From Candidatus Woesebacteria bacterium (GTDB lineage Bacteria > Patescibacteriota > Microgenomatia > UBA8517), in contig DMZH01000002.1 in assembly GCA_003484955.1 (NCBI GenBank), positions 145,700 through 209,699 of the forward strand: 64,000 bases of DNA. Direction: 5' to 3'. Position 1 is the stretch's first letter. Each line of letters begins with the position of its first letter. A model generated the notes under the pieces. That model was not told the DNA's origin and did no database searches. It saw nothing but the letters and a program-made list of their open reading frames with translations. This document shows positions 23,724-37,912 of this stretch, one piece after another. A program made the position numbers and the translations under genes.

Positions 23724-24444
23724 AGTTGAGGCTTATATTTTTTTCAGTAGTATTTCCTGCTTGATCGGTTGACTTTACATTAAAGGTATTCGAGCCTTCA
23801 TTTAGGGTCGTAGTATATTGAAAAATTCCCGAATCGTCAACTGAAATAATTCTGTCATTAATTGTAACTTTGGCGTCAGTTTCGGTCTTTCCTGTGATTG
23901 TAATTTGTCTTTGATTGGATCCAAAATAGCTGGAACCGTCTGAGGGTGAAGTTATTTCCAAATCAGGTGTTTTCTTGTCAAAAGTTATTTGATGGTCATC
24001 TGATTTTTGGCTTTGGTTTCCCGATTGATCGGTGGCGGTTGCCGCAAAAGTATTTATTCCATCCTGCAAGGTTACGCCAAACGAAAATTGTCCATCGTTG
24101 TCAGCCAAGACCTCTTGAGGACTTCCATTAAAAGTAAGTTTTACTGAGGCTCCCGATTCCGTATTACCTGTCAATGTCAGGGTTTGTTGGTTAGTGAATT
24201 CCGGAAAATATTTAAATTTAGGGGGTGGGGGCGGTGTAAAATCGGAGTTGCTGATTTTATTGTTATTACCTCTAAGACTGGAGACAAGTGAGGCAAGTCT
24301 GCCAAGAGCCGGTATTCCGATAAAATAAAGTATCGCAATGGCGGCAATTGTCAGCAATATATAAAAAGTAGCGCTTCTTGTGTTTTTTCTCTCCTCGGAA
24401 TTTATAAACCTTCTTGTAAACTTTTTCATTTTATTTTTGAGCAT
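23713..24444 (-). CDS. Membrane-anchored surface protein with two bacterial Ig-like (Big) domains
   Basis: N-terminal TM anchor, a PPPPP linker, and repeated TLTGNTESGASVKLTFNG...DQSGNQS / ITITGKTETDAKVTIND...DQAGNTT modules. The start codon lies inside the left 187-bp inverted repeat. Confidence 0.5.
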   Translation of the reverse strand: MLKNKMKKFTRRFINSEERKNTRSATFYILLTIAAIAILYFIGIPALGRLASLVSSLRGNNNKISNSDFTPPPPPKFKYFPEFTNQQTLTLTGNTESGASVKLTFNGSPQEVLADNDGQFSFGVTLQDGINTFAATATDQSGNQSQKSDDHQITFDKKTPDLEITSPSDGSSYFGSNQRQITITGKTETDAKVTINDRIISVDDSGIFQYTTTLNEGSNTFNVKSTDQAGNTTEKNISLNFTS

Positions 24445-24625
24445 GTTTATAATTTAGCTCGAACTCATTTTACAACAAAATACTAACAATTACATTTGCG
24501 TCAAGAAAAGGGGTTAAAGGGGAAATGAATTGACGCGAATGTCGTGTTGTCGCTCAGTCCCGCTTCGCGGGACTTCGCTAACTCTGTTCTCTTGCTCGCT
24601 CCTTTCAGTCGCTCGCAATACGCCA
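24439..24625. repeat. Left copy of a perfect 187-bp inverted repeat (IR187-L)
   Basis: Identical over all 187 nt to the reverse complement of 34539-34725. Contains the hairpin AGTCCCGC-TTCG-GCGGGACT. Confidence 0.9.
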
Positions 24626-25137
24626 AATGGTAAAGGGGTTATTTGTACAACCTTTGGTTGCTCAACATTTTCTCCGTTGCAAAAGTTTTCTGTAATCCGA
24701 GTATTTGCCCACCCACCCTAGAAAGGAGTTGGCGCTGCCCCCTCTGCACTCGCTAGGGCCCCCTATGGGCGGCCTTGCCGATGTTTTACTTTTGTTTATC
24801 TAAGTGTTCAGTATCTTCCTCGCCTCGTGCAAAAAACATTTGCCCCTTCGGGGTTGCACTCGGCTTTTCTCAAACACTTTTAAGTAGCGTTGCTCGTTCC
24901 GGGGGGCGTTCCTTTTTTTCCGCCCCCGCGCTTTTATTTTTTCCCTTTTCGCGCGTGGTCGGCGGAAACCTGCTTCGCAGGATAGCGCCAATGCAGGGAA
25001 CAGAAAACCAATAGGCCAAAATGGTGGAAATTGGCCGATTCTAGCTTCAAATTGGACAAAATCTAAAACAAAGAAGCTTCCACAGTTTTACTTCACAAAC
25101 ACTTCGCTTTAGTACAAGAGCGAAGTATACTAACTGT
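24626..25137 (+). ncRNA. Candidate structured noncoding RNA (GC-rich, several UUCG-tetraloop hairpins); identity unknown
   Basis: This ~510-nt stretch has no credible ORF and is far more GC-rich than the rest of the window. Hairpins CCCC-TTCG-GGGG (24844-24854), CCTGC-TTCG-GCAGG (24969-24981) and GGGGGGCG...CGCCCCC are present. The IR hairpin CCCGC-TTCG-GCGGG lies upstream. Confidence 0.25.
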
Positions 25138-25776
25138 ATGGCAGACGACACACCACAAGACACTACAACAACTCAAGACACACCTGCAGATCAACCAGTA
25201 GTTCAACCCGAACCACCGAAAGTCGAGGAGACTCCTGACGAAATTCCACCAACTGAAACTTCAGCAGAAGAAAAACCAACACCAACAGAAGAACCCAAAC
25301 CAGAAAATCCTCCCGAAGTTCCTGAAATTCCCCGAACTCCCGAAACATCCAAGGAGGAAACTAAAACAGAAGAGAAACCAACAGAAACAAAAGCAGAAGA
25401 ACTAAAAACAGACGAGAAACCCAAAGACGTGTCCGCCGAAGTCTCGACGAAGGTGGAAGAAGTTAAACCAGAAGTACCCGCTCCCGAATCTCCCAAACAA
25501 CCCGAAAAACCTATACCCGCCGAAACTTCAGTGAAGGAGGGCCAACCAAACCTTGACGACTTAAGAGACAAAGCAAACAAAGAGAGACAAGACAGAAAAC
25601 AGGAACATTTATCAGAAGTTGAGAAGTTAGCTAAATCAAAACAAATTAACAATGATGATGTCCGTGAGCTTTTGCACGTTTCCCAAAGTACAGCAACAAA
25701 TTATCTGGAAGAATTGACCAAACAGGGGAAAATCAAGAAGTCTGGGAAGGCAAAAGCTACTTCGTACTCTTCTTAA
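25138..25776 (+). CDS. Acidic low-complexity (P/E/T/K-rich) protein with a C-terminal winged-HTH DNA-binding domain
   Basis: About 150 aa of PEPK/TPTEE-type disordered repeats, then DVRELLHVSQSTATNYLEELTKQGKIKKSG (wHTH). Confidence 0.45.
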   Translation: MADDTPQDTTTTQDTPADQPVVQPEPPKVEETPDEIPPTETSAEEKPTPTEEPKPENPPEVPEIPRTPETSKEETKTEEKPTETKAEELKTDEKPKDVSAEVSTKVEEVKPEVPAPESPKQPEKPIPAETSVKEGQPNLDDLRDKANKERQDRKQEHLSEVEKLAKSKQINNDDVRELLHVSQSTATNYLEELTKQGKIKKSGKAKATSYSS

Positions 25777-26053
25777 CTTTAGTTGTGATTAGTTTAAATC
25801 CGCCTTTACCAAATTTAATAACTTGGCCTATTTTACTTATTGTGGAGGAGCTAACAGGAATTAACTTTTCAATTTCCTCATATGTTTTATCAGCTAGGAT
25901 ATAGTTTGCAATCTTGATTCGTTGGGCAAAATCCAAAGTTTCCTCATCTGTAAATAGATCTTGAATAAATAAGGCCAAATTATTTTTAGTCTTAACTTTG
26001 TAAAACGAATCAACCAGAAGTTCTTGGTCTTTACCCAGTGCCACTTTTGCCAT
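25757..26053 (-). CDS. TrpR-like YerC/YecD family protein
   Basis: 98 aa with the Trp-repressor-like fold signature LFIQDLFTDEETLDFAQRIKIANYILADKTYEEIEKLIPVSSSTISKI. Confidence 0.5.
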   Translation of the reverse strand: MAKVALGKDQELLVDSFYKVKTKNNLALFIQDLFTDEETLDFAQRIKIANYILADKTYEEIEKLIPVSSSTISKIGQVIKFGKGGFKLITTKVKKSTK

Positions 26054-26109
26054 AATTAACTATATCACGTTAATCCAATCAATTAAATAATTTCTGTCAG
26101 TCATATTTC

Positions 26110-26138
26110 TTGACAAAGTAATTCTTTTCATTTAATAT
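26110..26138 (+). promoter_or_regulatory. Sigma70-like promoter candidate (TTGACA-17-TAATAT)
   Basis: TTGACA at 26110-26115, a 17-nt spacer, and TAATAT at 26133-26138. Confidence 0.35.
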
Positions 26139-26261
26139 GAATTGACCGTTTGATACGGCGCACTTTTAAACAGATATTTATTTTCTTATTTGGAAATCGA
26201 CAGTTGTTTAATTACAACTAAGTACAGGGTAACTTGTACATTAAGGTATTTTTTTAATACC

Positions 26262-26286
26262 GCAGATGAAAATCTGCCGCTTTTTT
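26262..26286 (+). terminator. Rho-independent terminator candidate (GCAGAT-GAAA-ATCTGC then CCGC TTTTTT)
   Basis: A 6-bp stem with a GNRA loop followed by a T6 tract, ~125 nt downstream of the promoter candidate. Confidence 0.35.
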
Positions 26287-26482
26287 CCGGGACATGCACA
26301 GCAAGATGTATATGCATTAAGTTATGTGTCATTGCCAGGATCACAGGCATAATGGGGCTAAGATATGACAGTAGAAATATCGTGGCACGTCAGAAATATT
26401 TAAGGAGGCTCAAGATCTTTCTTTTAGGATTTCCTTTTTAAGACGGGCACTTGGCATTTTTGCCAGGTTAGAAAGGATAAAT

Positions 26483-26680
26483 ATGCTGAAAAAGTACAAC
26501 CAACTTATTAGTCTTATTGATGAGTTGGCCAAAGACGAAGATCTGAAGCCAGGTAAAAAGGATATACTTAAGAGGGCATTGAAGGAACTGTTCCACGCTC
26601 TTGATACTAAAAATATCAAAGGTGTGAGAAAAGCAATCGATCAGCTCTCAAAAGAACTGCTAATTGTTTACCATCCTTAA
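26483..26680 (+). CDS. Small helical hypothetical protein (65 aa), first gene of the RT/R-M cluster
   Basis: ORF with a good RBS-like context (AGGATAAATATG); no motif recognised. Confidence 0.3.
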   Translation: MLKKYNQLISLIDELAKDEDLKPGKKDILKRALKELFHALDTKNIKGVRKAIDQLSKELLIVYHP

Positions 26681-26713
26681 TTATTTCCATAAGGACCCGT
26701 TTGACGGATTTTT

Positions 26714-27043
26714 ATGGAAGTACCTATTATGAACTACGGAAAAGCACTCAAAATTGCACGCTCCGCGCGAAACATTTCTCAGAAAGATTTAAGTGATGCT
26801 ATTAGTTTGGATCCAAGCTATATTTCGCTTATAGAAAAAGGTAAAAGAATACCGACTATCGAAACTCTTGAGAAAATTGTAAAAAGTCTCAATATCCCAA
26901 TACATCTGTTTTTTCTATTGGCATCTGGCAAGAATCAAATGAAGAAAATGCCGTCTAGTAAAAAGGCGGGGGTAGCAGAGTTGTTGTTGGATCTTCTTCT
27001 TTCCACTGAAAAAAATGAGCACTCTCCAAAAAACAAAAATTAA
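26714..27043 (+). CDS. XRE-family helix-turn-helix transcriptional regulator
   Basis: ISQKDLSDAISLDPSYISLIEKGKRIPTIETLEKIVKSL matches the Cro/C1 HTH. The 3' end overlaps the RT start by 29 nt. Confidence 0.7.
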   Translation: MEVPIMNYGKALKIARSARNISQKDLSDAISLDPSYISLIEKGKRIPTIETLEKIVKSLNIPIHLFFLLASGKNQMKKMPSSKKAGVAELLLDLLLSTEKNEHSPKNKN

Positions 27044-27992
27044 ATCAGTTGCTGAACTTTCGCAAACTCTAAAGGTTGGTGTTAAGGAATTCGTCAAAAC
27101 CGCTAAAAATGCAAATTTGTTTTATAGACCATTTGATCTTAGCAAAAAAGGATCTGAAAAATGGAGACACATAGATAATCCAACAGGCAAACTCAAAATA
27201 ATCCAAAAGGCTATAAACAAACAAATTTTGCGCGACTTAATGTTTCAACTTCCACCTAATATCATGGGTGGTATCGAGAACAAATCTATTCTTGAAAATG
27301 CCAAAGTACACGTTGGACAAGAAATGGTTGTCACGATAGATATCAAAAATTGCTTTCCTAAAACAAAAAATGAGGTCATCTTTACCATCTGGAAAAATTT
27401 ATTGGGATTCGAGCCGAATAGTGCAAGGTTATTAACCCAATTAACTACAACAAAGGGACACCTACCTCAAGGTTCCCCTGCGAGTCCATCTTTATCAAAT
27501 CTTGCCCTACTTCCGATTTCAAAAGAAATTTTGAATTATTCAAAAAAACATCATTTGAACTTTACTATATATGTTGACGATATTACATTATCCGGAAAGA
27601 AAAGTTCAGCATTAGATTCAATTAGCCCAGTTGTTAAAATCATTCAAAAATATGGCTATGCAATAAGAAATAAGAAAGTTAAAAAAATGCCTTCATATAA
27701 AACTCAAACGACAACAGGAATCCAACTAAACTCTGAAATTTCCATTGGAAAGCAGAAGATTGATGAAATTAGGAAGGAAATAATTAATCTTGCCAAACTA
27801 CAAAAGCCGTATATCACTAAAAAATCAATTTTTAGCAAAATTGATTATGTAAAAAAAATTTCGCCAGAAAAAGGACAAAAACTACTAGAGTTTGCCAATA
27901 TGATATTGGAGGAAGATATTGATTATATTGCTGTTGATCCAGAAAAAGACGAAAAAAGAGATTGCAATGGAAAGGCCTGCCTAGCTAAATAG
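27015..27992 (+). CDS. Reverse transcriptase, retron-type (no maturase or endonuclease domains)
   Basis: RT motif 1/2 TIDIKNCFPKT, motif 4 LPQGSPASPSLSNLAL (retron-like LPQGAPTSPxLSNL), motif 5 YVDDITLSG, and a downstream TTGIQLN that matches the retron VTG region; 325 aa. Confidence 0.7.
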   Translation: MSTLQKTKIKSVAELSQTLKVGVKEFVKTAKNANLFYRPFDLSKKGSEKWRHIDNPTGKLKIIQKAINKQILRDLMFQLPPNIMGGIENKSILENAKVHVGQEMVVTIDIKNCFPKTKNEVIFTIWKNLLGFEPNSARLLTQLTTTKGHLPQGSPASPSLSNLALLPISKEILNYSKKHHLNFTIYVDDITLSGKKSSALDSISPVVKIIQKYGYAIRNKKVKKMPSYKTQTTTGIQLNSEISIGKQKIDEIRKEIINLAKLQKPYITKKSIFSKIDYVKKISPEKGQKLLEFANMILEEDIDYIAVDPEKDEKRDCNGKACLAK

Positions 27993-28052
27993 GTCAATTA
28001 CTTCGCTTTAGTACATTCGTACAAGAGCAAAAAGTGCTAAAATACACACATA

Positions 28053-30320
28053 ATGGCTAATTCATTAAATCTTTCTGACAACGAAAAGCGAGATATTATT
28101 AAATTTTTACAAGAAGGCAAATCTCTTCCTGAAAAATATAGATTTCTTCTTTTTAATGACGATCGTGAAGTTGAGCTTTTGTGGAATGGTAAAACAAATG
28201 AAGTTACTAATGTAGTATTGCCCTTTCAGGTAATAGAGCAAATTGACGAGCCAAGAAGTGATGCCAAATTCGGAATGCAAAACACACTTTTTGATACTAC
28301 TGGTCGACAAATTACAGGGTGGACAAATAAACTTATTTGGGGCGACAACAAATTAATACTTTCTTCACTCAAAAATGGTCCACTTCGAAAAGGAATTGAA
28401 GCACAAGGCGGTATAAAGTTGATTTACATTGACCCGCCCTTTGACGTTGGTGCTGACTTTTCAATGAATATAGAAGTTGGAGAAGATAGTTTTACCAAAA
28501 AACCCTCTGTAATTGAGGAAATTGCATATAGGGATACTTGGGGCAAAGGTGCAGATAGTTTTATTGCAATGATTTATCAAAGATTAAAATTGATGCACGA
28601 TTTATTGGCTAACGATGGAAGTATCTATGTCCATTGCGATTGGAGATTAAATAGCTATATGCGTTTAATCCTTGATGAAATTTTCGGTAAAGAAAATTAT
28701 AGAAATGAAATTGTTTGGAAACGCACATATTCTACAAAAGCACAGAGTATTAGCTTTGGTAAAACTCATGAACTTATTTTGTTTTACGCAAAAAGTGAAA
28801 GTACTAAATTAAAACAACTTTATCAAAAGCCAGATGAAGGGTATGTAGATAAATATTTTAATAAAACGGACGAAAATGGCAAAAAGTATCAATCTTTAAG
28901 CTTAACCCAACAAGGACAAGGACCAGCTAGATATTTTGGAGACAAACTAATAGAACCGACTAAGGGAATGCATTGGATTTGGTCGCAGGATAGAATCACT
29001 AAAGCTTTTCAAGAAGGTAGAATAGTTTTTACTAAAAATGATTTTCCAAGACTTAAAAAATACCTTGAGGATTGGAATGAACAAGGTCGTCCAATTGATG
29101 GTCTTTGGGTGGATGATGAAGTCGGGCCTCTAAACTCGTGGCACAGTGAATCACTCGATTATCCAACTCAAAAACCTGAATCGATGCTCACTCGCATAAT
29201 TCAATCCAGCAGTAATGAGGGAGATTTGGTTGCAGATTTTTTCTGTGGATCGGGAACAACACTTGCAGTTGCTGAAAAATTGAATAGAAAGTGGATAGGG
29301 TCTGATCTGGGAAAATTTGGAATACATACAACAAGAAAAAGAATGATAGGAGTGCAAAGAGAACTTAAGAAAGATGGCAAAGATTTTAGAGCTTTTGAAA
29401 TATTAAATGTTGGTAAGTATGAAAGAGATAGTTATCTAACAACAAATGATGATTTGAGAGCTGAAGAAAGAATAAAGCAAGCAGAAAGGAAAGAAAAAGA
29501 ATTCGTAAAACTTATTGTTACTGCCTATAAAGCAGAACTCATTGAATCATTTGTAAATATTGTAGGTAAAAAACGAGATAGACTAATTGCGGTTGGTCCA
29601 ATAAATACTCCTGTATCCTCTAAGTTTATTCAACAAGTAGTAAATGAATGCAAAGATAAAAATTTAACTAAAGTAGATATTTTAGGTTTTGACTATGAAA
29701 TGGGTATGAACATTGAGGAATATAGAAGTCAAAGTATTGATATTGTTTTTAAGGTAATTCCGAGAGAAGTTTTTGATAAACAAGCTGTAGAAAAAGGACA
29801 AGTTAAGTTTTACGATGTCGCATATATTGACGCAAAACCAGTTGTAAAGGGTGGAGCTAAAAGCAAGGAGTTGTCCATCGAGCTTACTGACTTTTCAGTT
29901 TTTTATAACCAAGATGCGAGTGATGATGTTTCTGAAAGTTTAAGACCTGGTGGAACAAAAGTTGTTGTTGAAAATGGACAAGTTGTTAAATTAACAAAAG
30001 ATAAAGAGTCTGATGTTGTATCAAAAGAAGTTTTAACTAAAAAATGGAGTGACTGGATTGATTATTGGGCAGTTGATTATAATTTTTCTGATAGAAAAGA
30101 AGTAATAATTGACCAAGACGATAAAGGTGAATATGTTGAGGCTTGGACAGGGGACTATATTTTTGATAACGAATGGCAAAGTTTTAGAACAAATAAAAAT
30201 AGAAATCTTGAATTAACTTCAACTCCAAGAGAAATGATAAAAGGAAATTATAAAGTTGCTGTTAAAGTTGTTGATATTTTTGGCAATGATACAACTAAAA
30301 TTATTGAGGTAAATATTTAA
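28053..30320 (+). CDS. mod: Type III restriction-modification Mod subunit (beta-class N6-adenine/N4-cytosine DNA methyltransferase)
   Basis: Motif IV IYIDPPF precedes motif I DFFCGSGTTLAVAEKLNRKWIGSDL (order IV-TRD-I); 755 aa. Confidence 0.75.
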   Translation: MANSLNLSDNEKRDIIKFLQEGKSLPEKYRFLLFNDDREVELLWNGKTNEVTNVVLPFQVIEQIDEPRSDAKFGMQNTLFDTTGRQITGWTNKLIWGDNKLILSSLKNGPLRKGIEAQGGIKLIYIDPPFDVGADFSMNIEVGEDSFTKKPSVIEEIAYRDTWGKGADSFIAMIYQRLKLMHDLLANDGSIYVHCDWRLNSYMRLILDEIFGKENYRNEIVWKRTYSTKAQSISFGKTHELILFYAKSESTKLKQLYQKPDEGYVDKYFNKTDENGKKYQSLSLTQQGQGPARYFGDKLIEPTKGMHWIWSQDRITKAFQEGRIVFTKNDFPRLKKYLEDWNEQGRPIDGLWVDDEVGPLNSWHSESLDYPTQKPESMLTRIIQSSSNEGDLVADFFCGSGTTLAVAEKLNRKWIGSDLGKFGIHTTRKRMIGVQRELKKDGKDFRAFEILNVGKYERDSYLTTNDDLRAEERIKQAERKEKEFVKLIVTAYKAELIESFVNIVGKKRDRLIAVGPINTPVSSKFIQQVVNECKDKNLTKVDILGFDYEMGMNIEEYRSQSIDIVFKVIPREVFDKQAVEKGQVKFYDVAYIDAKPVVKGGAKSKELSIELTDFSVFYNQDASDDVSESLRPGGTKVVVENGQVVKLTKDKESDVVSKEVLTKKWSDWIDYWAVDYNFSDRKEVIIDQDDKGEYVEAWTGDYIFDNEWQSFRTNKNRNLELTSTPREMIKGNYKVAVKVVDIFGNDTTKIIEVNI

Positions 30321-33011
30321 ATGGCATTACATAAAGATTTTCCAAAAGATCCGTACGCAATACTTGACCCTTCGATCAGGTGGTTTCCTGCTGACGAAGT
30401 CTTAAGAGAAAAAGGATATGATAAATTACTTCCACCACTCGTTGCTGATCTCCGAAAAAAAGTAAAAGAATGGAGAGATAAAAATTATGAAGGTGCGAGT
30501 GAAACTTCACAATCACTTTTGAATTGGTGGTTTAAGGAAGATCATGTTGTATACGATCAACATGGTGTTTCTTCAAATTTTAGATATTACTTTGCGCAAA
30601 GAGAAGCTTTAGAAACTGTCATATGGCTTTATGAAGTTGCCAAGGTAAAAGATAAATACGATCTAATTAGATACAACTCAACTCAAGTATTAAGTGCGGG
30701 TATGTTTACTGAGGATTGGTTAAGATTTGTAATCAAAATGGCAACAGGAGCAGGAAAGACAAAAGTTATGAGTTTAATTATTGCTTGGGCATATTTTCAT
30801 AGAAAATATGAGTTAGATTCTAATCTTTCAAAAAACTTTCTATTAATTACTCCAAATGTAATAGTATTTGAAAGAATCAAAAATGACTTTGAAGGTCTAA
30901 AGATATTTTTTACAGATCCGGTTTTACCTGATAATGGATATAATGGTCAAAATTGGCAAGATGATTTTCAATTAACATTACACTTACAAGATCAGTTAAG
31001 TACCATTTCAGATACCGGAAATATATTTTTAACTAACATACACAGAGTTTTTGAAGGAAATATTAAAGAAGCGAGTTTAGATGACGAAGATGTTTCTTCG
31101 TACTTCTTAGGTCGTAAACCAGTTACAAAAACTAACGATTCGACAGTTGACCTTGGTATGATTGTTCGAGATATTGATGAACTGATTGTTATAAATGATG
31201 AAGCCCACCATATACACGATGAAAATATGGTTTGGTATAAATCTATACTTGATATTGACAACAAGTTAAAACAAAAAGGATCAGGTCTCGCACTTCAATT
31301 AGATCTAACAGCCACTCCAAAAAAGAATGATGGCTCGATATTCGTGCAGGTAATATCTGACTATCCTTTAGTCGAAGCAATTCATCAAAGAATTGTCAAA
31401 AATCCAGTAATACCTGATGGGGCAAGTCAGGGGAAATTAAAGGAAAACCAAAGTATTTTGTTTAGTGAAAAATATAGAGACTATATTAATCTTGGAGTTG
31501 AAGAATGGAGGAAAACATATAAAACCTTAGAACCGATGGGTAAAAAATCAATTTTATTTATAATGACGGATGATACAAAAAACTGTGATGAAGTAGCTGA
31601 ATATATTAAAACAAGTTTTTCTGATCTTCGCGATGCAGTTTTAACAATCCACACTAATAAAAGCGGAGAGATTTCAGAAAGCGTTGGTGGTAAAAACGAA
31701 GAAGATTTAATACTTCTCCGAAAACAAGCTAATGAAATTGATAGTTGGGAAAGTCCTTTCAAAGTAATAGTTTCTGTAATGATGCTTAAAGAAGGCTGGG
31801 ATGTAAAAAACGTAACTACTATTGTAGGTCTTAGACCTTACGCAGCGGATTCAAAGATTCTTCCAGAACAAACGCTTGGTAGAGGTTTAAGGAGAATGTT
31901 TTTTGGCAGAGATGATGTTGAAGAATATGTAAGTGTAATTGGTACCACCGCTTTTATGGAATTTGTTGAATCAATTCAAGGGGAGGGTGTAATGCTTGAG
32001 CGAAAAGCTATGGGTGCAGGATCAAAGCCAATTACACCTGCAGTTATTGAAGTTGATAAGGAAAATCCAAATAAAAATATTGAAAAACTTGATATAGAAA
32101 TACCTGTAATGACTCCAAGAATCCAAAGGGAATATAAAAATCTTGCCAATTTAGATGTTTCTCAATTTGGAAATAAGAAAGTAAGTGTAAAGACTTTCTC
32201 AGAACAAGAAAAAAGAGAAATTATTTTCAAAGATGTTGTTGACGAAAAAATACATCATACAACTGTACTAACTGGCGATATTGAACCAGATTATAGAAGT
32301 GTAATTGGTTTTTTTGCCCAAGCTGTAATGAGAGAACTTAGGCTTTTTGGTTGTTATGACATTTTGTTTGAAAAAGTAAAGGAATTTATCGAGAAATATT
32401 TATTTGATATTACAGTTGATTTATCAGATCTCAATATATTAAGAAACTTGTCAGAAGTAGAATATATAAAATTTATTAAAGACACATTCAAAGATGCCAT
32501 TAATAACTTAACAATTCAAGATACTGGAGACACTGAAATCAAAAATTATATTAAAATTAGTGAAGCAAGACCATTTGTTGTTAATGATAAATCATATTTA
32601 ATTCCAAAAAAATCAGTATTTAATAAAATTGTAGGAGATAGTAATTTTGAACTTACTTTTGCTGATTTTCTTGAAAACTGTGAAGATGTAATTTCATTTT
32701 CCAAAAATTATCAAAACAAAGAAGCGAGTGCATTAAGAATTGAATATAAAAATTCAGAAGGGTTAATCGCAAACTATTATCCAGACTTTTTCGCAAAATT
32801 GGATGATAAAACTGTTTACATAATTGAAACAAAAGGCCGAGAGGAAGATGATGATAAACTAAAATTTGAAAGATTACAAAAATGGTGCATCGATGTAAAC
32901 AGTCGTCAAACAAAAGTGGAATATAAATCTCTATATATTAAGCAAGAAGAATGGGAAAATAATAAATTAAAAAATTTTGACGAGGTTGTTAGGTTATTTA
33001 CATCTATTTAA
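30321..33011 (+). CDS. res: Type III restriction enzyme Res subunit (SF2 DEAH helicase plus C-terminal PD-(D/E)xK endonuclease)
   Basis: Walker A ATGAGKTKVM, motif II VINDEAHH, helicase C region VSVMMLKEGWDVKNV, and a C-terminal YYPDF...VYIIETKG nuclease motif. The start abuts the mod stop. Confidence 0.75.
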   Translation: MALHKDFPKDPYAILDPSIRWFPADEVLREKGYDKLLPPLVADLRKKVKEWRDKNYEGASETSQSLLNWWFKEDHVVYDQHGVSSNFRYYFAQREALETVIWLYEVAKVKDKYDLIRYNSTQVLSAGMFTEDWLRFVIKMATGAGKTKVMSLIIAWAYFHRKYELDSNLSKNFLLITPNVIVFERIKNDFEGLKIFFTDPVLPDNGYNGQNWQDDFQLTLHLQDQLSTISDTGNIFLTNIHRVFEGNIKEASLDDEDVSSYFLGRKPVTKTNDSTVDLGMIVRDIDELIVINDEAHHIHDENMVWYKSILDIDNKLKQKGSGLALQLDLTATPKKNDGSIFVQVISDYPLVEAIHQRIVKNPVIPDGASQGKLKENQSILFSEKYRDYINLGVEEWRKTYKTLEPMGKKSILFIMTDDTKNCDEVAEYIKTSFSDLRDAVLTIHTNKSGEISESVGGKNEEDLILLRKQANEIDSWESPFKVIVSVMMLKEGWDVKNVTTIVGLRPYAADSKILPEQTLGRGLRRMFFGRDDVEEYVSVIGTTAFMEFVESIQGEGVMLERKAMGAGSKPITPAVIEVDKENPNKNIEKLDIEIPVMTPRIQREYKNLANLDVSQFGNKKVSVKTFSEQEKREIIFKDVVDEKIHHTTVLTGDIEPDYRSVIGFFAQAVMRELRLFGCYDILFEKVKEFIEKYLFDITVDLSDLNILRNLSEVEYIKFIKDTFKDAINNLTIQDTGDTEIKNYIKISEARPFVVNDKSYLIPKKSVFNKIVGDSNFELTFADFLENCEDVISFSKNYQNKEASALRIEYKNSEGLIANYYPDFFAKLDDKTVYIIETKGREEDDDKLKFERLQKWCIDVNSRQTKVEYKSLYIKQEEWENNKLKNFDEVVRLFTSI

Positions 33012-33698
33012 ATGTATAAACTTTCACCATCAGATTTTGCATATTTATACGAGGAATGTAAGCTTTGCTATTACTTAAAGATTAAACATGGAATATACCA
33101 ACCAAGCATGCCAATGCCTGGAGTTTTTTCTGCAATAAATACTCGACTTCAAGGAAATTTGGTTGGTAAAAATCTTCACACGCTTTCAGAAAAGTTGCCA
33201 GATGGGATCGTTGAAAATCAAGAAGGTTGGGTTGAATCAAAACCAGTTCCTGATACGGAAGTATTTATAAAAGGCAAATACGATTTATTAGTTAAACTTC
33301 CTGATGACACGCACCTATTGGTTGATCTAAAAATTAGCACACCGGGGGATGATAAAATTGAAAAATATAAAACTCAACTTAATGCCTACAAATTTGCTCT
33401 TGAAAATCCAGCTAACGGAAACCCTATAAAATTAACAAGGCTTGGACTTTTGATTTTTTATCCAGACCAAGTTAGTTTTGAGAAAGGAAGTGCTACCCTA
33501 ACTTTTCCTCCAAGCTGGTTAGAGGTTCCTGCTGATCAAACAGGATTTTTAGCTTTTGCAAAAAGAATAGATAAATTACTTTCGGGTCCAACACCAGAGG
33601 AGGGAAAAGAATGTAAATGGTGCAAATATAGACATTTGGGAGATACCCTTTCTCATACTGATACTGGAAGTGTGAAGGATGACACAATTCCATTTTAA
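33012..33698 (+). CDS. Cas4/RecB-like PD-(D/E)xK nuclease with four Cys (probable Fe-S cluster), not CRISPR-linked
   Basis: N-terminal CKLC, core GKYDLLV ... LLVDLKIS (D...D-x-K), a QLNAY (QxxxY) motif, and a C-terminal CKWC. The start abuts the res stop. Confidence 0.55.
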   Translation: MYKLSPSDFAYLYEECKLCYYLKIKHGIYQPSMPMPGVFSAINTRLQGNLVGKNLHTLSEKLPDGIVENQEGWVESKPVPDTEVFIKGKYDLLVKLPDDTHLLVDLKISTPGDDKIEKYKTQLNAYKFALENPANGNPIKLTRLGLLIFYPDQVSFEKGSATLTFPPSWLEVPADQTGFLAFAKRIDKLLSGPTPEEGKECKWCKYRHLGDTLSHTDTGSVKDDTIPF

Positions 33699-33946
33699 GG
33701 AGTTAACTTTGGTGTTGTACAACAGTGAAGTATATTGACAATTTGCCACCAAATGGTAACAATGGTATTATACTTCTCCAATGACTAAAACTAACAAATC
33801 TCAACCAACTAAAAAAGCAGTTTATTTTATTGCTACAAAATATAAAAATAGGCAGACTCGTGTCAGTCTATATACAAAAGACTGGAAAAGTGTCGCTAAA
33901 AGCGATGCTACGGATAAACTCGGATATTCATTAGAATAACTTCTCC

Positions 33947-34459
33947 ATGGGTAAGAAAAATAAATCTCCGTTAACCCCAATGGATTTTCAGTTGGGTTCT
34001 GGAGGCGTCATTCCCTCCACCCAGGAAGCTTTTGGACCAAACAAAGAATTCTCTGGAAATATACGAAAAGAAGAAAGCGGCGCGACTGCAGAATTTAAAA
34101 AAGCTCTTGGTACCCAGATAGATGTCGAAATTGGTGAGTTGAAACAGTTCCCTTCGGATAAGGAGTTTTTTGTGTTTATAATTCAATACTTTGTTTCAGA
34201 CAAAGAATATAAGGCCAGAGACCTGGACAATATGGCTAAAACCATGCTGGACTTATTGAAAGGAAGATTTTATAAAGACGATGGACAAGTTAAGACACTC
34301 TTAGTTGGTAAGAAGATGGAAAAACGTGTTCCTAAAAATTTTATATATTTTGCATTAAAAGAAATGAAGGATGACAGAGATATTGATGCCCTGAAGATTT
34401 CCGGGCTAGAAAGATCAGTCACTCTTTTCAATGAACAAGTGGCAAAAGGACTTTGCTGA
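33947..34459 (+). CDS. rusA: RusA-like Holliday junction resolvase (phage-type)
   Basis: ARDLDNMAKTMLDLLKGRFYKDDGQVKTLLVGKK matches the RusA motif DLDNxxKxxLDxLxGxxxxDDxQV...K. Confidence 0.55.
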   Translation: MGKKNKSPLTPMDFQLGSGGVIPSTQEAFGPNKEFSGNIRKEESGATAEFKKALGTQIDVEIGELKQFPSDKEFFVFIIQYFVSDKEYKARDLDNMAKTMLDLLKGRFYKDDGQVKTLLVGKKMEKRVPKNFIYFALKEMKDDRDIDALKISGLERSVTLFNEQVAKGLC

Positions 34460-34538
34460 TACTAAAAATTGGCTTCAATTGTATAAAATAGTTATTCGAT
34501 TTTTTAATTGAGTATTTTATATTATCAATAGGCACGAG

Positions 34539-34725
34539 TGGCGTATTGCGAGCGACTGAAAGGAGCGAGCAAGAGAACAGAGTTAGCGAAGTCCCGCGAA
34601 GCGGGACTGAGCGACAACACGACATTCGCGTCAATTCATTTCCCCTTTAACCCCTTTTCTTGACGCAAATGTAATTGTTAGTATTTTGTTGTAAAATGAG
34701 TTCGAGCTAAATTATAAACATGCTC
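34539..34725. repeat. Right copy of the perfect 187-bp inverted repeat (IR187-R)
   Basis: The reverse complement of 24439-24625, with 187/187 identity. Confidence 0.9.
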
Positions 34726-34773
34726 CCAAGATAAATTTTTTGAAGAGGCGCGAAGCGCCGACCAAGCGAATTG
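34725..34773. repeat. 49-bp inverted repeat, copy a (IR49-a), immediately abutting IR187-R and upstream of the recombinase gene
   Basis: CCCAAGATAAATTTTTTGAAGAGGCGCGAAGCGCCGACCAAGCGAATTG is the reverse complement of 36275-36324 apart from a 1-nt indel. Confidence 0.85.
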
Positions 34774-34838
34774 ACACTCCACGGACTGATATTATTTGAG
34801 CTATTGCTTCGGGATAATTGCAAAGATATAAATAAGTA

Positions 34839-36386
34839 ATGGTAAATAAATTCTTCCTCTACGCCAGAAAGTCCACAGATGTAGAAGATATGCAGGTTCT
34901 TTCAATTGAAGCTCAAATTAATGAACTCCGTGAGTTAGCCAAGAAAGAAGGTTTAGAGATAGTAGATGAGCTAATTGAAAAGAAATCTGCAAAAAATCCC
35001 GGAAGGGTAATTTTTAATTCCATGCTTGATAGAATTGAAAAAGAAGAAGCTAATGGAATTATATCTTGGCACCCAGATAGACTTGCCAGGAATAGTGTGG
35101 ACGGAGGAAGAATTATTTACCTCTTAGATAGAAATAAATTATCTGCCCTCAAATTTAATACCTTTTGGTTTGAATCTACTCCTCAAGGAAAGTTCATGCT
35201 TAGTATTGCATTTTCTCAAAGTAAATATTATGTAGATTCCTTGTCAGAAAACACCAAAAGAGGACTTCGCCAAAAAGCTAAAAATGGATATTGCCCCAGT
35301 GTTGCCCCAATTGGTTATTTAAATGATTCAAGAAACAAAACTATTGTTTTAAATAAAAAAGTTGGTCCAATTATCAAAGAAACTTTTGAACATTATAGTA
35401 ACGGCAATATCCTAATGCGTGAAGTAAGTAGCTTTTTGGCTGAACGTGGAATACTTCTTCCTAGTGGTAGACCCTTCGGTCTTTCAAGAATTAGAAAAAT
35501 CTTAACAAATCCATATTATTATGGTCATTTTATATATGCGGGAGAAGTATATGAGGGCAGACACGACCCAATAATTTCAAAGCTACTTTTTGACAAAGTC
35601 CAAGAAATTATTAATAGAAAAAATAAACAGTGGAGTAAGGCTAGAGTAGAAAGAGTTCACAAGCCTTACGTTGGACTTTTGACGTGTGGTGAGTGCGGAA
35701 TGGGCATTACAGCTGATTTTAAAGATAGACATTATAAAAACGGCAATTGTAGCCATTTTAATTATTACAGGTGTACTAAAAAGGATAAAACTACAAAATG
35801 TCTACAATCCCATATCCGCGAGGAGGACTTGGATAGTCAGCTCACCACACTTCTCAAAAAGTACACTTTGAAAAATGCTTGGGCAATAAAAATGAATAAG
35901 AAACTAGATATTGAATCAAGAGATATTGCCCAATCATCCCTTTCTGTCATTTCTCTCAAGAGAAAAGAAATTGATAATTTGAATTCTAAACTCCAGCTTC
36001 TTTTAGACAGTTATTTAGATCAAATAACTGATAAAGAAATGTACAAAAAAAAGAAGCTTGAGTTATTCTCTCAAAAGAAAACTTTTGAGGAACAAATTAT
36101 CAATTTGCAAAACCAGAAAGGGAATTGGATCGAACCTATGAGAAAGTGGATATCCGAAGCAAGTGAAGTGGATCAAATAATATCAACAAACAATAAAGAC
36201 GATAAAAAGGTTCTCGCTTCAAAAATCTTCGGCTCGAACCTCTTTTTGGAAGACAAAAAAGTCCGTGGAGTAGGCCAATTCGCTTGGTCGGCGCTTCGCG
36301 CCTCTTCAAAAAATTTATCTTGGGAGCCGAGAGTGGGGATCGAACCCACGACCTGCGGTTTACGATACCGCCGCTCTGCCAACTGA
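34839..36386 (+). CDS. Large serine recombinase (resolvase catalytic domain, recombinase domain and zinc ribbon)
   Basis: N-terminal FLYARKSTDVEDMQ...Q with the catalytic Ser in YxRxST, the resolvase core GIISWHPDRLARN, a recombinase domain, and a Zn ribbon CGECGMG...C...YYRC. The 3' end reads ~60 nt into tRNA-Thr (...GIEPTT...). Confidence 0.75.
   Translation: MVNKFFLYARKSTDVEDMQVLSIEAQINELRELAKKEGLEIVDELIEKKSAKNPGRVIFNSMLDRIEKEEANGIISWHPDRLARNSVDGGRIIYLLDRNKLSALKFNTFWFESTPQGKFMLSIAFSQSKYYVDSLSENTKRGLRQKAKNGYCPSVAPIGYLNDSRNKTIVLNKKVGPIIKETFEHYSNGNILMREVSSFLAERGILLPSGRPFGLSRIRKILTNPYYYGHFIYAGEVYEGRHDPIISKLLFDKVQEIINRKNKQWSKARVERVHKPYVGLLTCGECGMGITADFKDRHYKNGNCSHFNYYRCTKKDKTTKCLQSHIREEDLDSQLTTLLKKYTLKNAWAIKMNKKLDIESRDIAQSSLSVISLKRKEIDNLNSKLQLLLDSYLDQITDKEMYKKKKLELFSQKKTFEEQIINLQNQKGNWIEPMRKWISEASEVDQIISTNNKDDKKVLASKIFGSNLFLEDKKVRGVGQFAWSALRASSKNLSWEPRVGIEPTTCGLRYRRSAN
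36275..36324. repeat. 50-bp inverted repeat, copy b (IR49-b), inside the recombinase 3' coding region and ending 1 nt from the tRNA-Thr 3' end
   Basis: Reverse complement of 34725-34773 with one extra nucleotide. Contains the hairpin GGCGC-TTCG-(C)GCGCC. Confidence 0.85.
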
Positions 36387-36397
36387 GCTACCTCGGC
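36325..36397 (-). tRNA. tRNA-Thr (anticodon CGT)
   Basis: Manual cloverleaf on the minus strand: acceptor GCCGAGG/TCTCGGC (G7-U66 wobble), D-arm GCTC-AGTTGGCA-GAGC, anticodon stem GCGGT/ACCGC with loop ATCGTAA, T-arm GTGGG-TTCGATC-CCCAC, discriminator U. Confidence 0.8.
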
Positions 36398-36429
36398 TTA
36401 TGTGCTCAATTATAGCATTTCTGGGCGTG

Positions 36430-36500
36430 AGCGGGTGAGCGGAGTCGAACCGCCCTTTCCACCTTGGGAAGGTGGCGTTGAGCCGATCAACTACACCCGC
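36430..36500 (-). tRNA. tRNA-Gly (anticodon CCC)
   Basis: Manual cloverleaf: acceptor GCGGGTG/CACCCGC, D-arm GTTG-ATCGGCT-CAAC, anticodon stem CCACC/GGTGG with loop TTCCCAA, T-arm GGCGG-TTCGACT-CCGCT, discriminator U. Confidence 0.75.
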
Positions 36501-36567
36501 ATCAGCACAACAAAGACACACGAATTATATCATTGATTCAAATGTATGTCCGCCTTCCAAGGTTTTA

Positions 36568-37134
36568 TTATCTGGGTAAAATTAGAATGTTTCCCGTATG
36601 AATTATATTAGGGTTATCTAATTCGTTTACCTCTGCAATTTCAGTCCATCTGAAACCATCTCCATAGGCTCTGACTGCTATATTCCACAGGCTGTCTCCT
36701 TTAACTACTGTGTAGGTCTCGCTTGTTATCGGCGATTCTTGTAAAACAGTTTGAGATTCAGATTCCTCTGTTGTTGTAGGTTCGTTTGGTGTGACATCAT
36801 CAGGTAAGATTAACTTTTGTCCAATCTCAATATTATCTGTCTCTAAATTATTGGCACTTTTTATGTCTACCCAGTTATATCCGGAACCATACGAATTTTC
36901 TGCAATCGACCATAGTGTTTCACCTTCTACTACAGTGTGTTCGTTAATAGCTGATGTCTGGGTTGAGTCTACCGTAATACTGCCGTTTCCCTTGTCTTTA
37001 AAGTAATTTACAACCAAGACTCCAACTATAACAAGAACAATTGCCCCTAAGATCATGCTAATATTTTCCTCGTTAAGTTTTATTTGTTTGAGAAGTTTTT
37101 TTAGTTGAAAACTGTTATTTTGATCAAATTTCAA
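36568..37134 (-). CDS. LysM domain protein (N-terminal TM anchor, two LysM repeats)
   Basis: LysM repeats at TVVEGETLWSIAENSYGSGYNWVDIKSANNL...IGQKLILP and YTVVKGDSLWNIAVRAYGDGFRWTEIAEVNEL...TGNILILP. Confidence 0.7.
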   Translation of the reverse strand: MKFDQNNSFQLKKLLKQIKLNEENISMILGAIVLVIVGVLVVNYFKDKGNGSITVDSTQTSAINEHTVVEGETLWSIAENSYGSGYNWVDIKSANNLETDNIEIGQKLILPDDVTPNEPTTTEESESQTVLQESPITSETYTVVKGDSLWNIAVRAYGDGFRWTEIAEVNELDNPNIIHTGNILILPR

Positions 37135-37225
37135 ATTTATTCACCTTCTTTCCGAAGGGCAGAGTTAGGCTGAATGTAGAGGAAGAAACGAATGAAGTCA
37201 ATAGGAAAATAATAATATTATTGGG

Positions 37226-37489
37226 CGGGATCGACGAGATTCGGACTCGCAACCTCTTCCGTGCACCTTTTTGTTTCCAAAAAGTTTGGACTATCTCATC
37301 ATCCTAAAAATAGGAGCCAGGTATATAGTCTCTACACATTTACTACGTTCACATAAACTGAACGCAGCTTTAGCTCGGGATTGCCATCTTAAAGGTTTCC
37401 CCGAATTAGCCTGGTTTTACATTCCAGATCACTCTGGAACGCTGCCACAATCGACAGGGAAGCGCTCTAGCCAGTTGAGCTACGACCCC
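37226..37489 (-). tRNA. Split tRNA gene, probably tRNA-Asp(GTC), with a ~190-nt intervening sequence (putative intron) in the anticodon loop
   Basis: The 5' half (37458-37489) is GGGGTCG-TA-GCTC-AACTGGCTA-GAGC-G-CTTCC, followed by loop nts CTGT.... The 3' half (37226-37260) is GGAAG-AGGTT-GCGAG-TCCGAAT-CTCGT-CGATCCC-G. The halves pair into a canonical cloverleaf only if 37261-37457 is removed. The predicted mature loop is CTGTCAC, and the intervening sequence ends in G. Confidence 0.5.
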
Positions 37490-37501
37490 AATACACGTAT
37501 T

Positions 37502-37912
37502 TTACCAGTAATAGTCTTTAGCCGCAATTACACCTTTTTCTTGGTTATTTTTTGATTTTTCTATTCTTATACTTAGTTTCTTTTTACCAACAAAAATAGC
37601 TTTTGGGAAAAAGCATAATTTATCAATTTTTGGAATATACACGATCAGGGCGTCAACCTCATTTTTCTTGTATGTATAAGTATTTTTTCTTCTGTCAACA
37701 TACTCAAGTTTTACAACAACAGATCCATGCGTATTTGAAGGTTTTCCGTTGGCATATTTTACTTGTAAGCGGGAGAGACGAAGACCATCATCAATAATTA
37801 AATCATATCGGGCATCAAACAAAGGTCTGCTGGGCAAATATCCCAATTCAAATGCTCTTAACTCGGCCTTACTTACGGCCAATTGTCCTTTTGTGTTGGT
37901 GGTTGTCTTCAT
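37502..37912 (-). CDS. Hypothetical protein, possible PD-(D/E)xK (Hjc-like) nuclease fold
   Basis: Weak E...YDLIID...LQVKY pattern (E-D-QxK); 136 aa. Confidence 0.25.
   Translation of the reverse strand: MKTTTNTKGQLAVSKAELRAFELGYLPSRPLFDARYDLIIDDGLRLSRLQVKYANGKPSNTHGSVVVKLEYVDRRKNTYTYKKNEVDALIVYIPKIDKLCFFPKAIFVGKKKLSIRIEKSKNNQEKGVIAAKDYYW

Follow-up and report, generated by a model that had tools for sequence, protein, structure and literature searches.

[quoted passage not shown]

The interrupted tRNA-Asp gene

Herein, we analyzed a stretch of 64,000 nucleotides (hereafter, the window) in which a tRNA-Asp gene is split by a group I intron and is preceded by a gene for a 136-aa protein (Table 1). 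On the minus strand, positions 37489-37458 read as the acceptor strand GGGGTCG, the D-arm, and the 5' anticodon stem CTTCC, and positions 37260-37226 as GGAAG, a 5-nt variable loop, the T-arm, the acceptor strand CGATCCC, and the discriminator G. Both halves had been described in the initial annotation, and direct reading of the sequence bore them out. The same annotation had taken 37261-37457 as the intervening sequence. The insert is real, but this interval combines seven loop bases with the 190-nt intron, whose true limits are 37453-37264. U 37454 closes the 5' exon and C 37263 opens the 3' exon; the exon-final U and intron-final G recorded earlier are thus U 37454 and G 37264.

When the two exons were joined, ARAGORN called the product tRNA-Asp(gtc). 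The identity elements of tRNA-Asp are G73, G2:C71, G10, G34-U35-C36, and C38, all of which are carried by the spliced product, with its loop CUGUCAC. Under default settings, ARAGORN and the Rfam tRNA model reported tRNA-Val, tRNA-Thr, and tRNA-Gly alone in the window and missed the split gene; neither found any other tRNA-Asp within the 64 kb. The 3' end of the gene reads ...CGATCCC-G-CCCAAT and does not encode CCA, which would be harmless if a CCA-adding enzyme is present.

The open reading frame of the 136-aa protein lies on the same strand as tRNA-Asp, and its stop codon is located 12 nt before the tRNA 5' end. The stop codon overlaps a TAAAAT motif resembling a -10 element, which may be a promoter element of the tRNA. 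A scan for consensus promoters upstream of tRNA-Asp returned nothing significant and did not call this motif. The sequence GTAAAATAC is kept 5' of tRNA-Asp in all loci that bear the endonuclease gene, and relatives without the gene have TTGATATAAT there.

Table 1. Positions of the features of the interrupted tRNA-Asp locus in the window
Feature	Position	Strand	Basis
Free-standing 136-aa PD-(D/E)XK endonuclease gene, I-Ssp6803I-like, PF11645	37502..37912	-	Pfam, PDB 2OST, Foldseek, PADLOC
-10-like TAAAAT (within TGGTAAAAT), putative tRNA promoter element	37499..37504	-	Overlap with the stop codon of the endonuclease gene; 9 nt 5' of tRNA position 1
tRNA-Asp(GUC) 5' exon: acceptor, D-arm, 5' anticodon stem, loop C32 U33 G34 U35	37454..37489	-	Sequence; ARAGORN call of tRNA-Asp on the spliced product
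Group I intron, 190 nt, ORF-less, site 35/36, last base G 37264	37264..37453	-	RF00028, 79 bits; block absent in locus L139; covariation-backed fold
Internal guide sequence 5'-GUG/GCAG-3'	37442..37448	-	GCAG with exon CUGU forms P1 (U.G at splice site); GUG with 3'-exon CAC forms P10
P2 hairpin, GNRA loop (GUGA)	37421..37440	-	Independent folding in all homologs; compensatory changes
P3 5' strand CCAGG	37410..37414	-	Partner 37317-37321; C-G to U-A covariation at two positions; 100% paired
P4-P5-P4' domain: UUCGGGG / AAA / CCUUUAAGAUGG / CAAU / CCCGAG	37374..37405	-	P4 invariant in 17/17 and 100% paired; P5 covaries
P6/P6a hairpin	37337..37373	-	Compensatory change in all 10 pairs across homologs
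P7 5' strand GACUAU	37325..37330	-	Pseudoknot with 37289-37294; invariant in 17/17; 100% paired
P3 3' strand CCUGG	37317..37321	-	Pair counts
P8 hairpin UCCUA-UUUU-UAGGA	37302..37315	-	Only helix between P3' and P7'; homologous hairpin of differing sequence in all homologs
P7 3' strand AUAGUC	37289..37294	-	Pair counts
P9 hairpin, invariant GAAA tetraloop	37267..37284	-	6/7 pairs compensatory; 97% paired
tRNA-Asp 3' exon: C36 A37 C38, 3' anticodon stem, variable loop, T-arm, acceptor, G73	37226..37263	-	Sequence, ARAGORN, intron-less alleles

Fold and splice junction of the intron

The Infernal search that had been proposed as a check gave a full-length match to the group I model RF00028 at 37470-37267, scoring 79 bits (E=2e-18) where the gathering score is 50. 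At first, a group I fold could not be confirmed by eye; it is now backed by this covariance model, by RNAalifold, and by pair counts over P1-P10. Besides exceeding the RF00028 threshold, the intron has a P1 with a U.G pair, a terminal G with P10, and a P3-P9 core containing the P3/P7 pseudoknot. Among 17 homologs, P1 (CUGU/GCAG with U36.G45), P4, and P7 are invariant, while P3, P5, P6, P8, and P9 covary; P10 (GUG/CAC) is paired in 88% of cases. The loop of P9 is invariably GAAA, and that of P2 is always a GNRA loop. P7 is the guanosine-binding helix of group I introns, and the P7 of this intron is expected to play the same role.

Three comparisons bear on the fold. When 10 homologs were cut at invariant anchors and the segments were folded separately, the P2, P6, P8, and P9 hairpins formed in all of them despite differing sequences, and the same 10 homologs revealed C-G to U-A changes in P3. 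Unguided RNAalifold of the 17 homologs recovered the anticodon stem, P1-P6, and P9, with compensatory changes in 19 of the 52 pairs. The P1-P10 model itself was drawn up manually on the basis of the sequence and the Rfam alignment, and its counts include the P3/P7 pseudoknot and P10. Across the 17 homologs, 90.4% of its cells were standard-paired, compared with 37-48% when the partners were slid by 1-3 columns; 30 pairs were changed on both sides, a number that none of 500 shuffles reached, and the covariation score was 0.282 against at most 0.125 for the slid versions, although both controls flatter the model because it was built from the window sequence and the 17 sequences are related. For P8, the column count was 78% paired with a slipped MAFFT register, and this helix was therefore judged by the independent folds rather than by columns.

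The small size of the intron had been raised as a point against a group I assignment. Introns of this lineage are 173-229 nt long, and bacterial tRNA introns span 184-894 nt (PMC13011429), so that 190 nt lies at the small end of the known range and is not anomalous. At this length the intron is too short for protein coding.

The position of the splice junction needed a proper test. The proposed intron-aware run (ARAGORN -i) did find the split gene, but it called tRNA-Ala(tgc) with the intron at tccct/.../tgcac, that is, after U33, two bases away from the Asp junction. Considering that both the Asp and the Ala placements give an exon-final U and an intron-final G, as is also the case in the related loci L055 and L041, these two bases alone left the assignment ambiguous. 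We scored the eight possible junctions, and the one after U35 was alone in combining an exon-final U, a terminal intron G, and a 4-bp P1 with a contiguous 5-bp P10. In this arrangement the guide 5'-UUGUG/GCAG-3' forms five P10 pairs with the 3' exon, three of which are Watson-Crick. Neighboring placements also reach 9 bp of pairing in total, but their exons do not end in U. The terminal G and the 4-bp P1 of the Asp junction were kept in 10/10 homologs, and later in 17/17.

A tRNA-Ala(UGC) with the same 190-nt intron shifted two bases upstream, to position 33/34, was refuted by these comparisons, and we assign it practically no probability. Its P1 would be reduced to a single base pair, and its intron would end in G in only 3/10 homologs and in T or A in the other seven. 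The identity of tRNA-Ala resides in G3:U70 and A73, unlike the G3:C70 and G73 found here. Intron-less genes speak for the same junction: in one metagenome scan, with a pattern that matched both predicted products, 37 intron-less genes were retrieved, all of which read CTGTCAC (37/37) and none CTTGCAC (0/37). The mature loop CTGTCAC and anticodon GTC (Asp) first read from the sequence therefore agree with these alleles as well as with the ARAGORN call on the spliced product. Four of the intron-less genes (L121, L137, L146, and L157) are identical to the predicted spliced product of the window at 74/74 positions, and the syntenic locus L139 (~91% identical) lacks exactly the 190 nt. Furthermore, an identical two-base artefact of ARAGORN and tFind has been disproved by the sequenced spliced product of a homolog (PMC13011429). 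Together, the junction scores, the homologs, the intron-less alleles, L139, and the tRNA identity elements place the intron at 37453-37264, position 35/36.

We consider it very likely that the tRNA-Asp(GUC) precursor is split between U35 and C36 by an ORF-less, self-splicing group I ribozyme of 190 nt. In the proposed mechanism, the transcribed intron would fold into P1-P10, and the guide GUGGCAG would align both exon ends. An external guanosine would attack after U35, which is located in the U.G pair of P1; the terminal intron G (37264) would then occupy the same site, and the exons would be ligated.

Homologous introns and the host lineage

The view that tRNA introns are poorly documented in CPR bacteria is outdated, since a 2025 preprint and a 2026 paper cover exactly this class. 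Nakagawa et al. (mSystems 2026, PMC13011429; bioRxiv 10.1101/2025.07.03.662931) described introns at position 35/36 in tRNA-Asp(GUC) and tRNA-Asn(GUU) of Patescibacteria. In their work, the tRNA-Asp precursor of GCA_001029755.1 self-spliced in vitro precisely at 35/36, a terminal G-to-C change abolished the reaction, and ARAGORN miscalled the Asp gene as Ala-UGC at 33/34, two bases off. Their Asp introns match the window in the host tRNA, the site, the Ala(UGC) 33/34 miscall, and the ORF-less state. Over the whole precursor, the window is 79.7% identical to CP011214.1 (= GCA_001029755.1), and GCA_030583725.1 has almost the same P3-P4-P5 and P7 cores. From the three Asp cases of that paper, the window copy differs in its genome, in the exon D-loop, and in the peripheral helices. 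Being homologous to the published Asp cases and distinct from them, the window intron is, on sequence comparison, a new member of an already described class that has been validated in vitro. It has the 35/36 insertion site and a host placed within Patescibacteria. What is established is its sequence, its fold, its junction, and its relationship to the in vitro-spliced homolog; the window copy may by analogy be expected to splice as well.

The assignment of the host follows the neighborhood of the gene. Among the closest loci, L055 is 98.5% identical over the precursor, and the 4/270 positions at which it differs from the window are all in loops. The intron-bearing tRNA and the PolX gene beside it are common to the closest loci, Ca. 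Woesebacteria CP011214.1, and Microgenomates MAGs. The closest loci have a GC content of 33-39%, and the 'uncultured Gammaproteobacteria' label that they carry is most likely a taxonomy-mapping error. The window locus is syntenic and homologous with CP011214.1 and with the Microgenomates/Woesebacteria MAGs L020 and L112, indicating that the host is probably a member of Patescibacteria. An identical locus is present in GCA_000994035.1 and GCA_000996165.1.

A decaying pseudogene, with an intron that has lost splicing in a cell relying on another tRNA-Asp elsewhere, is favored by the restriction of the view to 64 kb of the genome and by the failure of default annotation tools to see the tRNA-Asp gene. 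No other tRNA-Asp occurs within the window, however, and a published complete genome has no tRNA-Asp besides the interrupted copy (PMC13011429). The exons and the catalytic core are invariant across 17 lineages, in which the peripheral helices vary only in a compensatory manner, and the window and L055 differ by 1.5% at the tRNA and intron but by ~6% in the neighboring PolX gene. Decay of this kind is therefore very improbable. The failure of tRNA finders, which miss this essential gene or call it Ala, skews the tRNA complements and completeness scores of Patescibacteria, a point that is already in the literature.

With regard to intron subgroups, nearly all tRNA introns of Patescibacteria have been classed as IA (PMC13011429). 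On inspection, P8 proved to be the sole hairpin separating P3' from P7' in the window intron, which leaves no room for P7.1/P7.2. Subgroup IA is marked by these P7.1/P7.2 helices. The minimal IC3 introns of Azoarcus tRNA-Ile and cyanobacterial tRNA-Leu(UAA) have GNRA loops on P2 and P9 and no P5abc extension, features that the window intron shares, together with a length of ~200 nt, the absence of an ORF, and a location in the anticodon loop. However, the IC3 type inserts at 34/35 or 36/37, whereas the window intron lies at 35/36 in a different host tRNA. A scan of genome contigs with a permissive core pattern retrieved mostly tRNA-Leu(UAA) introns, with at least 8 loci of the Asp lineage among the matches listed. 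The P4-P5-P4' motif AATTCGGGGAAACC..GG.AATCCCGAG recurs in at least 85 introns of tRNA-Leu, which come from many phyla, and the P4-P5 core of the window intron equals that of tRNA-Leu introns.

The flanking endonuclease gene

The 136-aa protein matched Pfam PF11645 over residues 4-134 with 75 bits against a threshold of 26 (E=7e-21), and an NCBIfam search returned no match. By sequence and by predicted fold alike, its only significant relative of solved structure is I-Ssp6803I (PDB 2OST; E=2.5e-7 by sequence). Four chains of 2OST also led the Foldseek results with a probability of 1.0 and a TM-score of ~0.5, obtained with a moderate model (pLDDT 69), and PADLOC labeled the protein a homing endonuclease. 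Across 116 family sequences, conservation of D37, D41, Q50, and K52 reaches at least 99%, and 2OST has the same residues at the aligned positions, in agreement with the catalytic D...(D/E/Q)xK motif. Some homolog records at NCBI are titled 'group I intron-associated PD-(D/E)XK endonuclease'. We take I-Ssp6803I to cut the anticodon region of a tRNA gene.

PF11645 is also listed for endonucleases encoded inside cyanobacterial tRNA-fMet introns (PMC13011429), and according to a review the target of I-Ssp6803I is a 23-bp pseudo-palindromic sequence. The two proteins are ~25-27% identical, and both are tied to a tRNA gene bearing a group I intron. I-Ssp6803I is, however, encoded inside the tRNA-fMet group I intron of Synechocystis, whereas no part of the window gene falls within the intron and the gene precedes tRNA-Asp by 12 nt; the window protein is thus a free-standing relative rather than an intron-encoded enzyme. 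We regard it as very probably a free-standing homing endonuclease with tRNA-Asp as its locus.

An ordinary host nuclease, inherited vertically and placed beside tRNA-Asp by chance, would agree with the strong purifying selection on the gene (dN/dS 0.09-0.15, with saturated synonymous sites) and with its near-constant length, as nearly all of more than 200 clusters at 64-100% identity have 136 aa. The distribution of the gene, in contrast, is patchy: presence varies among genomes that are 93-97% identical, and the ancestral intergenic sequence is intact where the gene is absent. L055, L139, and L041 lack the gene and share an intergenic sequence with a TTGATATAAT-type box, in place of which the window carries a cassette of ~480 bp. 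In L008, a C-terminal remnant without D37 and D41 is all that is left. Considering also the homology to a known homing endonuclease and the same arrangement in a Streptomyces phage, chance placement of an ordinary nuclease is unlikely.

To describe the context of the gene, we compared 14 independent chromosomal contexts. In all 14, the gene lies 13-65 nt upstream of tRNA-Asp(GUC). Ten of these tRNA genes (the window and nine other loci) have the 35/36 intron and consensus exons, and four are uninterrupted. Streptomyces phage Forrest carries, within its tRNA array, a homolog of 50% identity that stops 7-8 nt short of tRNA-Asp(GTC), and this tRNA has a variant anticodon arm with A38. The four uninterrupted chromosomal tRNAs and that of Forrest all depart from the consensus, either within the anticodon loop or immediately 3' of it. 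Consequently, an uninterrupted consensus site is found at 0/14 loci carrying the endonuclease, compared with 29 loci that have such a site and no gene. In the scan of species representatives, the gene was present in 4/8 assessable loci containing the intron, versus 0/29 intron-less consensus alleles with enough upstream flank (Fisher p=0.001); with intact copies and distinct flanks only, the p value was 0.017, and this association is confounded by phylogeny and by locus retrieval, the 29 alleles having been fetched with an exact-consensus pattern. At intron-positive loci without the endonuclease, the upstream ORFs were a methyltransferase fragment, an ASCH-domain protein, and unknowns without Pfam matches, none of which matched a nuclease family.

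Simple co-transfer of intron and endonuclease was ruled out for the window lineage, as L055 has the same intron without the gene. Because the window and L055 share an intron lineage and differ in the gene, the two elements moved separately in this clade.

Two known models fit the endonuclease, namely collaborative homing and intron-independent homing. In collaborative homing, which has been described for two phage systems (PMC3984707), a free-standing enzyme and an ORF-less intron share one site. There, as here, both elements are patchy and partly independent among close relatives. The known cases concern phage protein-coding genes and other nuclease families, whereas the present one concerns a tRNA gene on a bacterial chromosome and a PD-(D/E)XK enzyme. 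Collaborative homing is moreover defined by a cleavage site that coincides with the intron insertion site, so that the intron confers immunity; for the present enzyme such a target is a hypothesis, to which the 0/14 count lends indirect support.

We tentatively propose, somewhat doubtful as it is, a homing system of two parts on a bacterial chromosome, in which the endonuclease is paired with the ORF-less intron of tRNA-Asp. The enzyme would target the uninterrupted anticodon region, cutting consensus tRNA-Asp at or next to 35/36. Carriers would be shielded by the intron, which would then protect its own genome, or by variation in the target, for instance A38 or changes in the anticodon stem, and the subfamily would move between Patescibacteria chromosomes and actinophage tRNA arrays. 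Collaborative homing is favored by the finding that the gene never stands beside an uninterrupted consensus site. It is weakened by the exact-consensus retrieval of the 29 alleles, by the origin of the variant alleles in more divergent lineages, and by the difference in the gene between the window and L055.

The flanking endonuclease gene is the part of this locus that could add to published work. Nakagawa et al. sought endonuclease genes only inside introns of more than 500 bp and concluded that transfer is limited (PMC13011429); a gene flanking the tRNA lay outside that search and was not seen. Our literature search found no description of a PF11645 endonuclease adjacent to a tRNA gene. The patchy distribution of ORF-less bacterial tRNA introns is an old question, to which an endonuclease acting in trans and specific for a tRNA locus would be a concrete answer. 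If the two-part system is real, it would provide a horizontal route for bacterial tRNA introns that encode no endonuclease themselves, in conflict with the limited transfer inferred in that paper, and the protein would add a sequence-specific enzyme that is new and acts on a tRNA gene, present in bacterial chromosomes and in phage tRNA arrays.

That the endonuclease has no functional tie to the intron, their co-occurrence being coincidental or due to shared ancestry, is a real possibility that falls a little short of an even chance. The gene adjoins an intron-less tRNA-Asp in 4/14 chromosomal contexts and in phage Forrest, and it differs between the window and L055 within one intron lineage. 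More distant homologs in phages and viral contigs adjoin tRNA-Pro, tRNA-Val, or tRNA-Ser, all uninterrupted. Against the lack of a tie stand the restriction of the gene, among consensus anticodon arms, to intron-interrupted alleles, the deviation of all five gene-bearing intron-less alleles from the consensus, and the fact that the closest characterized relative is an intron-encoded enzyme. A precedent for homing without an intron exists in SegB, a free-standing GIY-YIG homing endonuclease that performs intron-independent homing in the tRNA arrays of T4-like phages (PMC13096335). Like SegB, the window protein is encoded by a free-standing gene among tRNA genes, and its phage homologs also reside in tRNA arrays. 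However, SegB has an unrelated nuclease fold and no link to an intron, whereas the subfamily of the window protein is associated with a single specific tRNA.

The endonuclease gene and the tRNA genes it adjoins

The free-standing endonuclease gene beside the interrupted tRNA-Asp (Table) was missing in close relatives of the window locus. Members of its subfamily adjoined tRNA-Asp(GUC) in every chromosomal context sampled (14/14) and also in Streptomyces phage Forrest. At a related locus, L008, an endonuclease remnant (L008:3615-3887) lay 5' of an intron-containing tRNA-Asp; it lacked the N-terminal 45 residues, among them the catalytic aspartates. Such a truncation would fit a homing endonuclease gene in decay. 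Phage and viral tRNA arrays contained distant PF11645 homologs (31-41% identical). Those of L175, L178, L180 (Synechococcus phage Sf-FR1), and L181 (Vibrio phage Pylo) ended 0-15 nt 5' of a tRNA gene or overlapped it, the adjoining tRNAs being Pro, Ser, Val, and Pro, respectively, a pattern that points to a broader family of tRNA gene-associated endonucleases.

Table. Coordinates of genes and ORFs around the interrupted tRNA-Asp and in the block at tRNA-Thr
Feature	Position	Strand	Remark
Retron-type reverse transcriptase	27015-27992		11.9-kb block; PADLOC RT_VI, 4e-69
Large serine recombinase	34839-36386		11.9-kb block
LysM-domain gene	36568-37134	-	Downstream of interrupted tRNA-Asp, same strand
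94-aa ORF, TTG start	37271-37555	+	Spans intron, 5' exon, and end of endonuclease gene
I-Ssp6803I-like PD-(D/E)XK endonuclease, 136 aa	37502-37912	-	12 nt upstream of interrupted tRNA-Asp

Intron core and tRNA-Asp gene

The exact P4-P5-P4' motif of the window intron (37374-37405, minus strand) was shared, among loci L001-L120, by at least 85 tRNA-Leu(UAA/CAA) introns from Proteobacteria, Acidobacteriota, Chloroflexota, Cyanobacteria, and other groups. Patescibacteria tRNA introns have been assigned to a separate subgroup, IA (PMC13011429), an assignment with which this common motif sits awkwardly. The homologous intron at L164:2454-2702 was 229 nt long because its P6 hairpin was tandemly duplicated, ACACATTTTGACGAATGTGAT being present twice.

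At the 3' end of the tRNA-Asp (37220-37226, minus strand), the discriminator G was followed by CCCAAT; therefore, CCA is not encoded. Some homologs, for example in GCA_030583725.1, do encode it. The 94-aa ORF on the opposite strand is almost certainly spurious, and gene callers might annotate it instead of the tRNA.

Variable regions and neighboring genes

At the intergenic position between the PolX and tRNA-Asp genes where the window carries the endonuclease cassette, the close relative L041 had a different insertion of ~880 bp (L041:3083-4002); it contained, on the opposite strand, a fragment of an ORF with a methyltransferase domain. This intergenic spot is a variable region. The LysM-domain gene was followed by tRNA-Gly(CCC) and tRNA-Thr(CGU) (36321-37134, minus strand), with a good promoter-like site (10/12 matches, with TG) 5' of tRNA-Gly at 36552-36524.

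An 11.9-kb block of low GC (0.31-0.34; 24443-36313), missing in L055, L041, L139, and other relatives, was inserted at the exact 3' end of tRNA-Thr(CGU), with a junction repeat of only roughly 4 bp. Besides the recombinase and reverse transcriptase, it encoded RusA, a Cas4-like nuclease, and Type III Res and Mod, and it resembles an integrated defence island.

The MAGs of L055, L041, L105, L008, and L001 are titled 'uncultured Gammaproteobacteria bacterium'. These loci showed synteny and homology with Woesebacteria/Microgenomates genomes and a GC content of 33-39%; the Gammaproteobacteria label is probably wrong.
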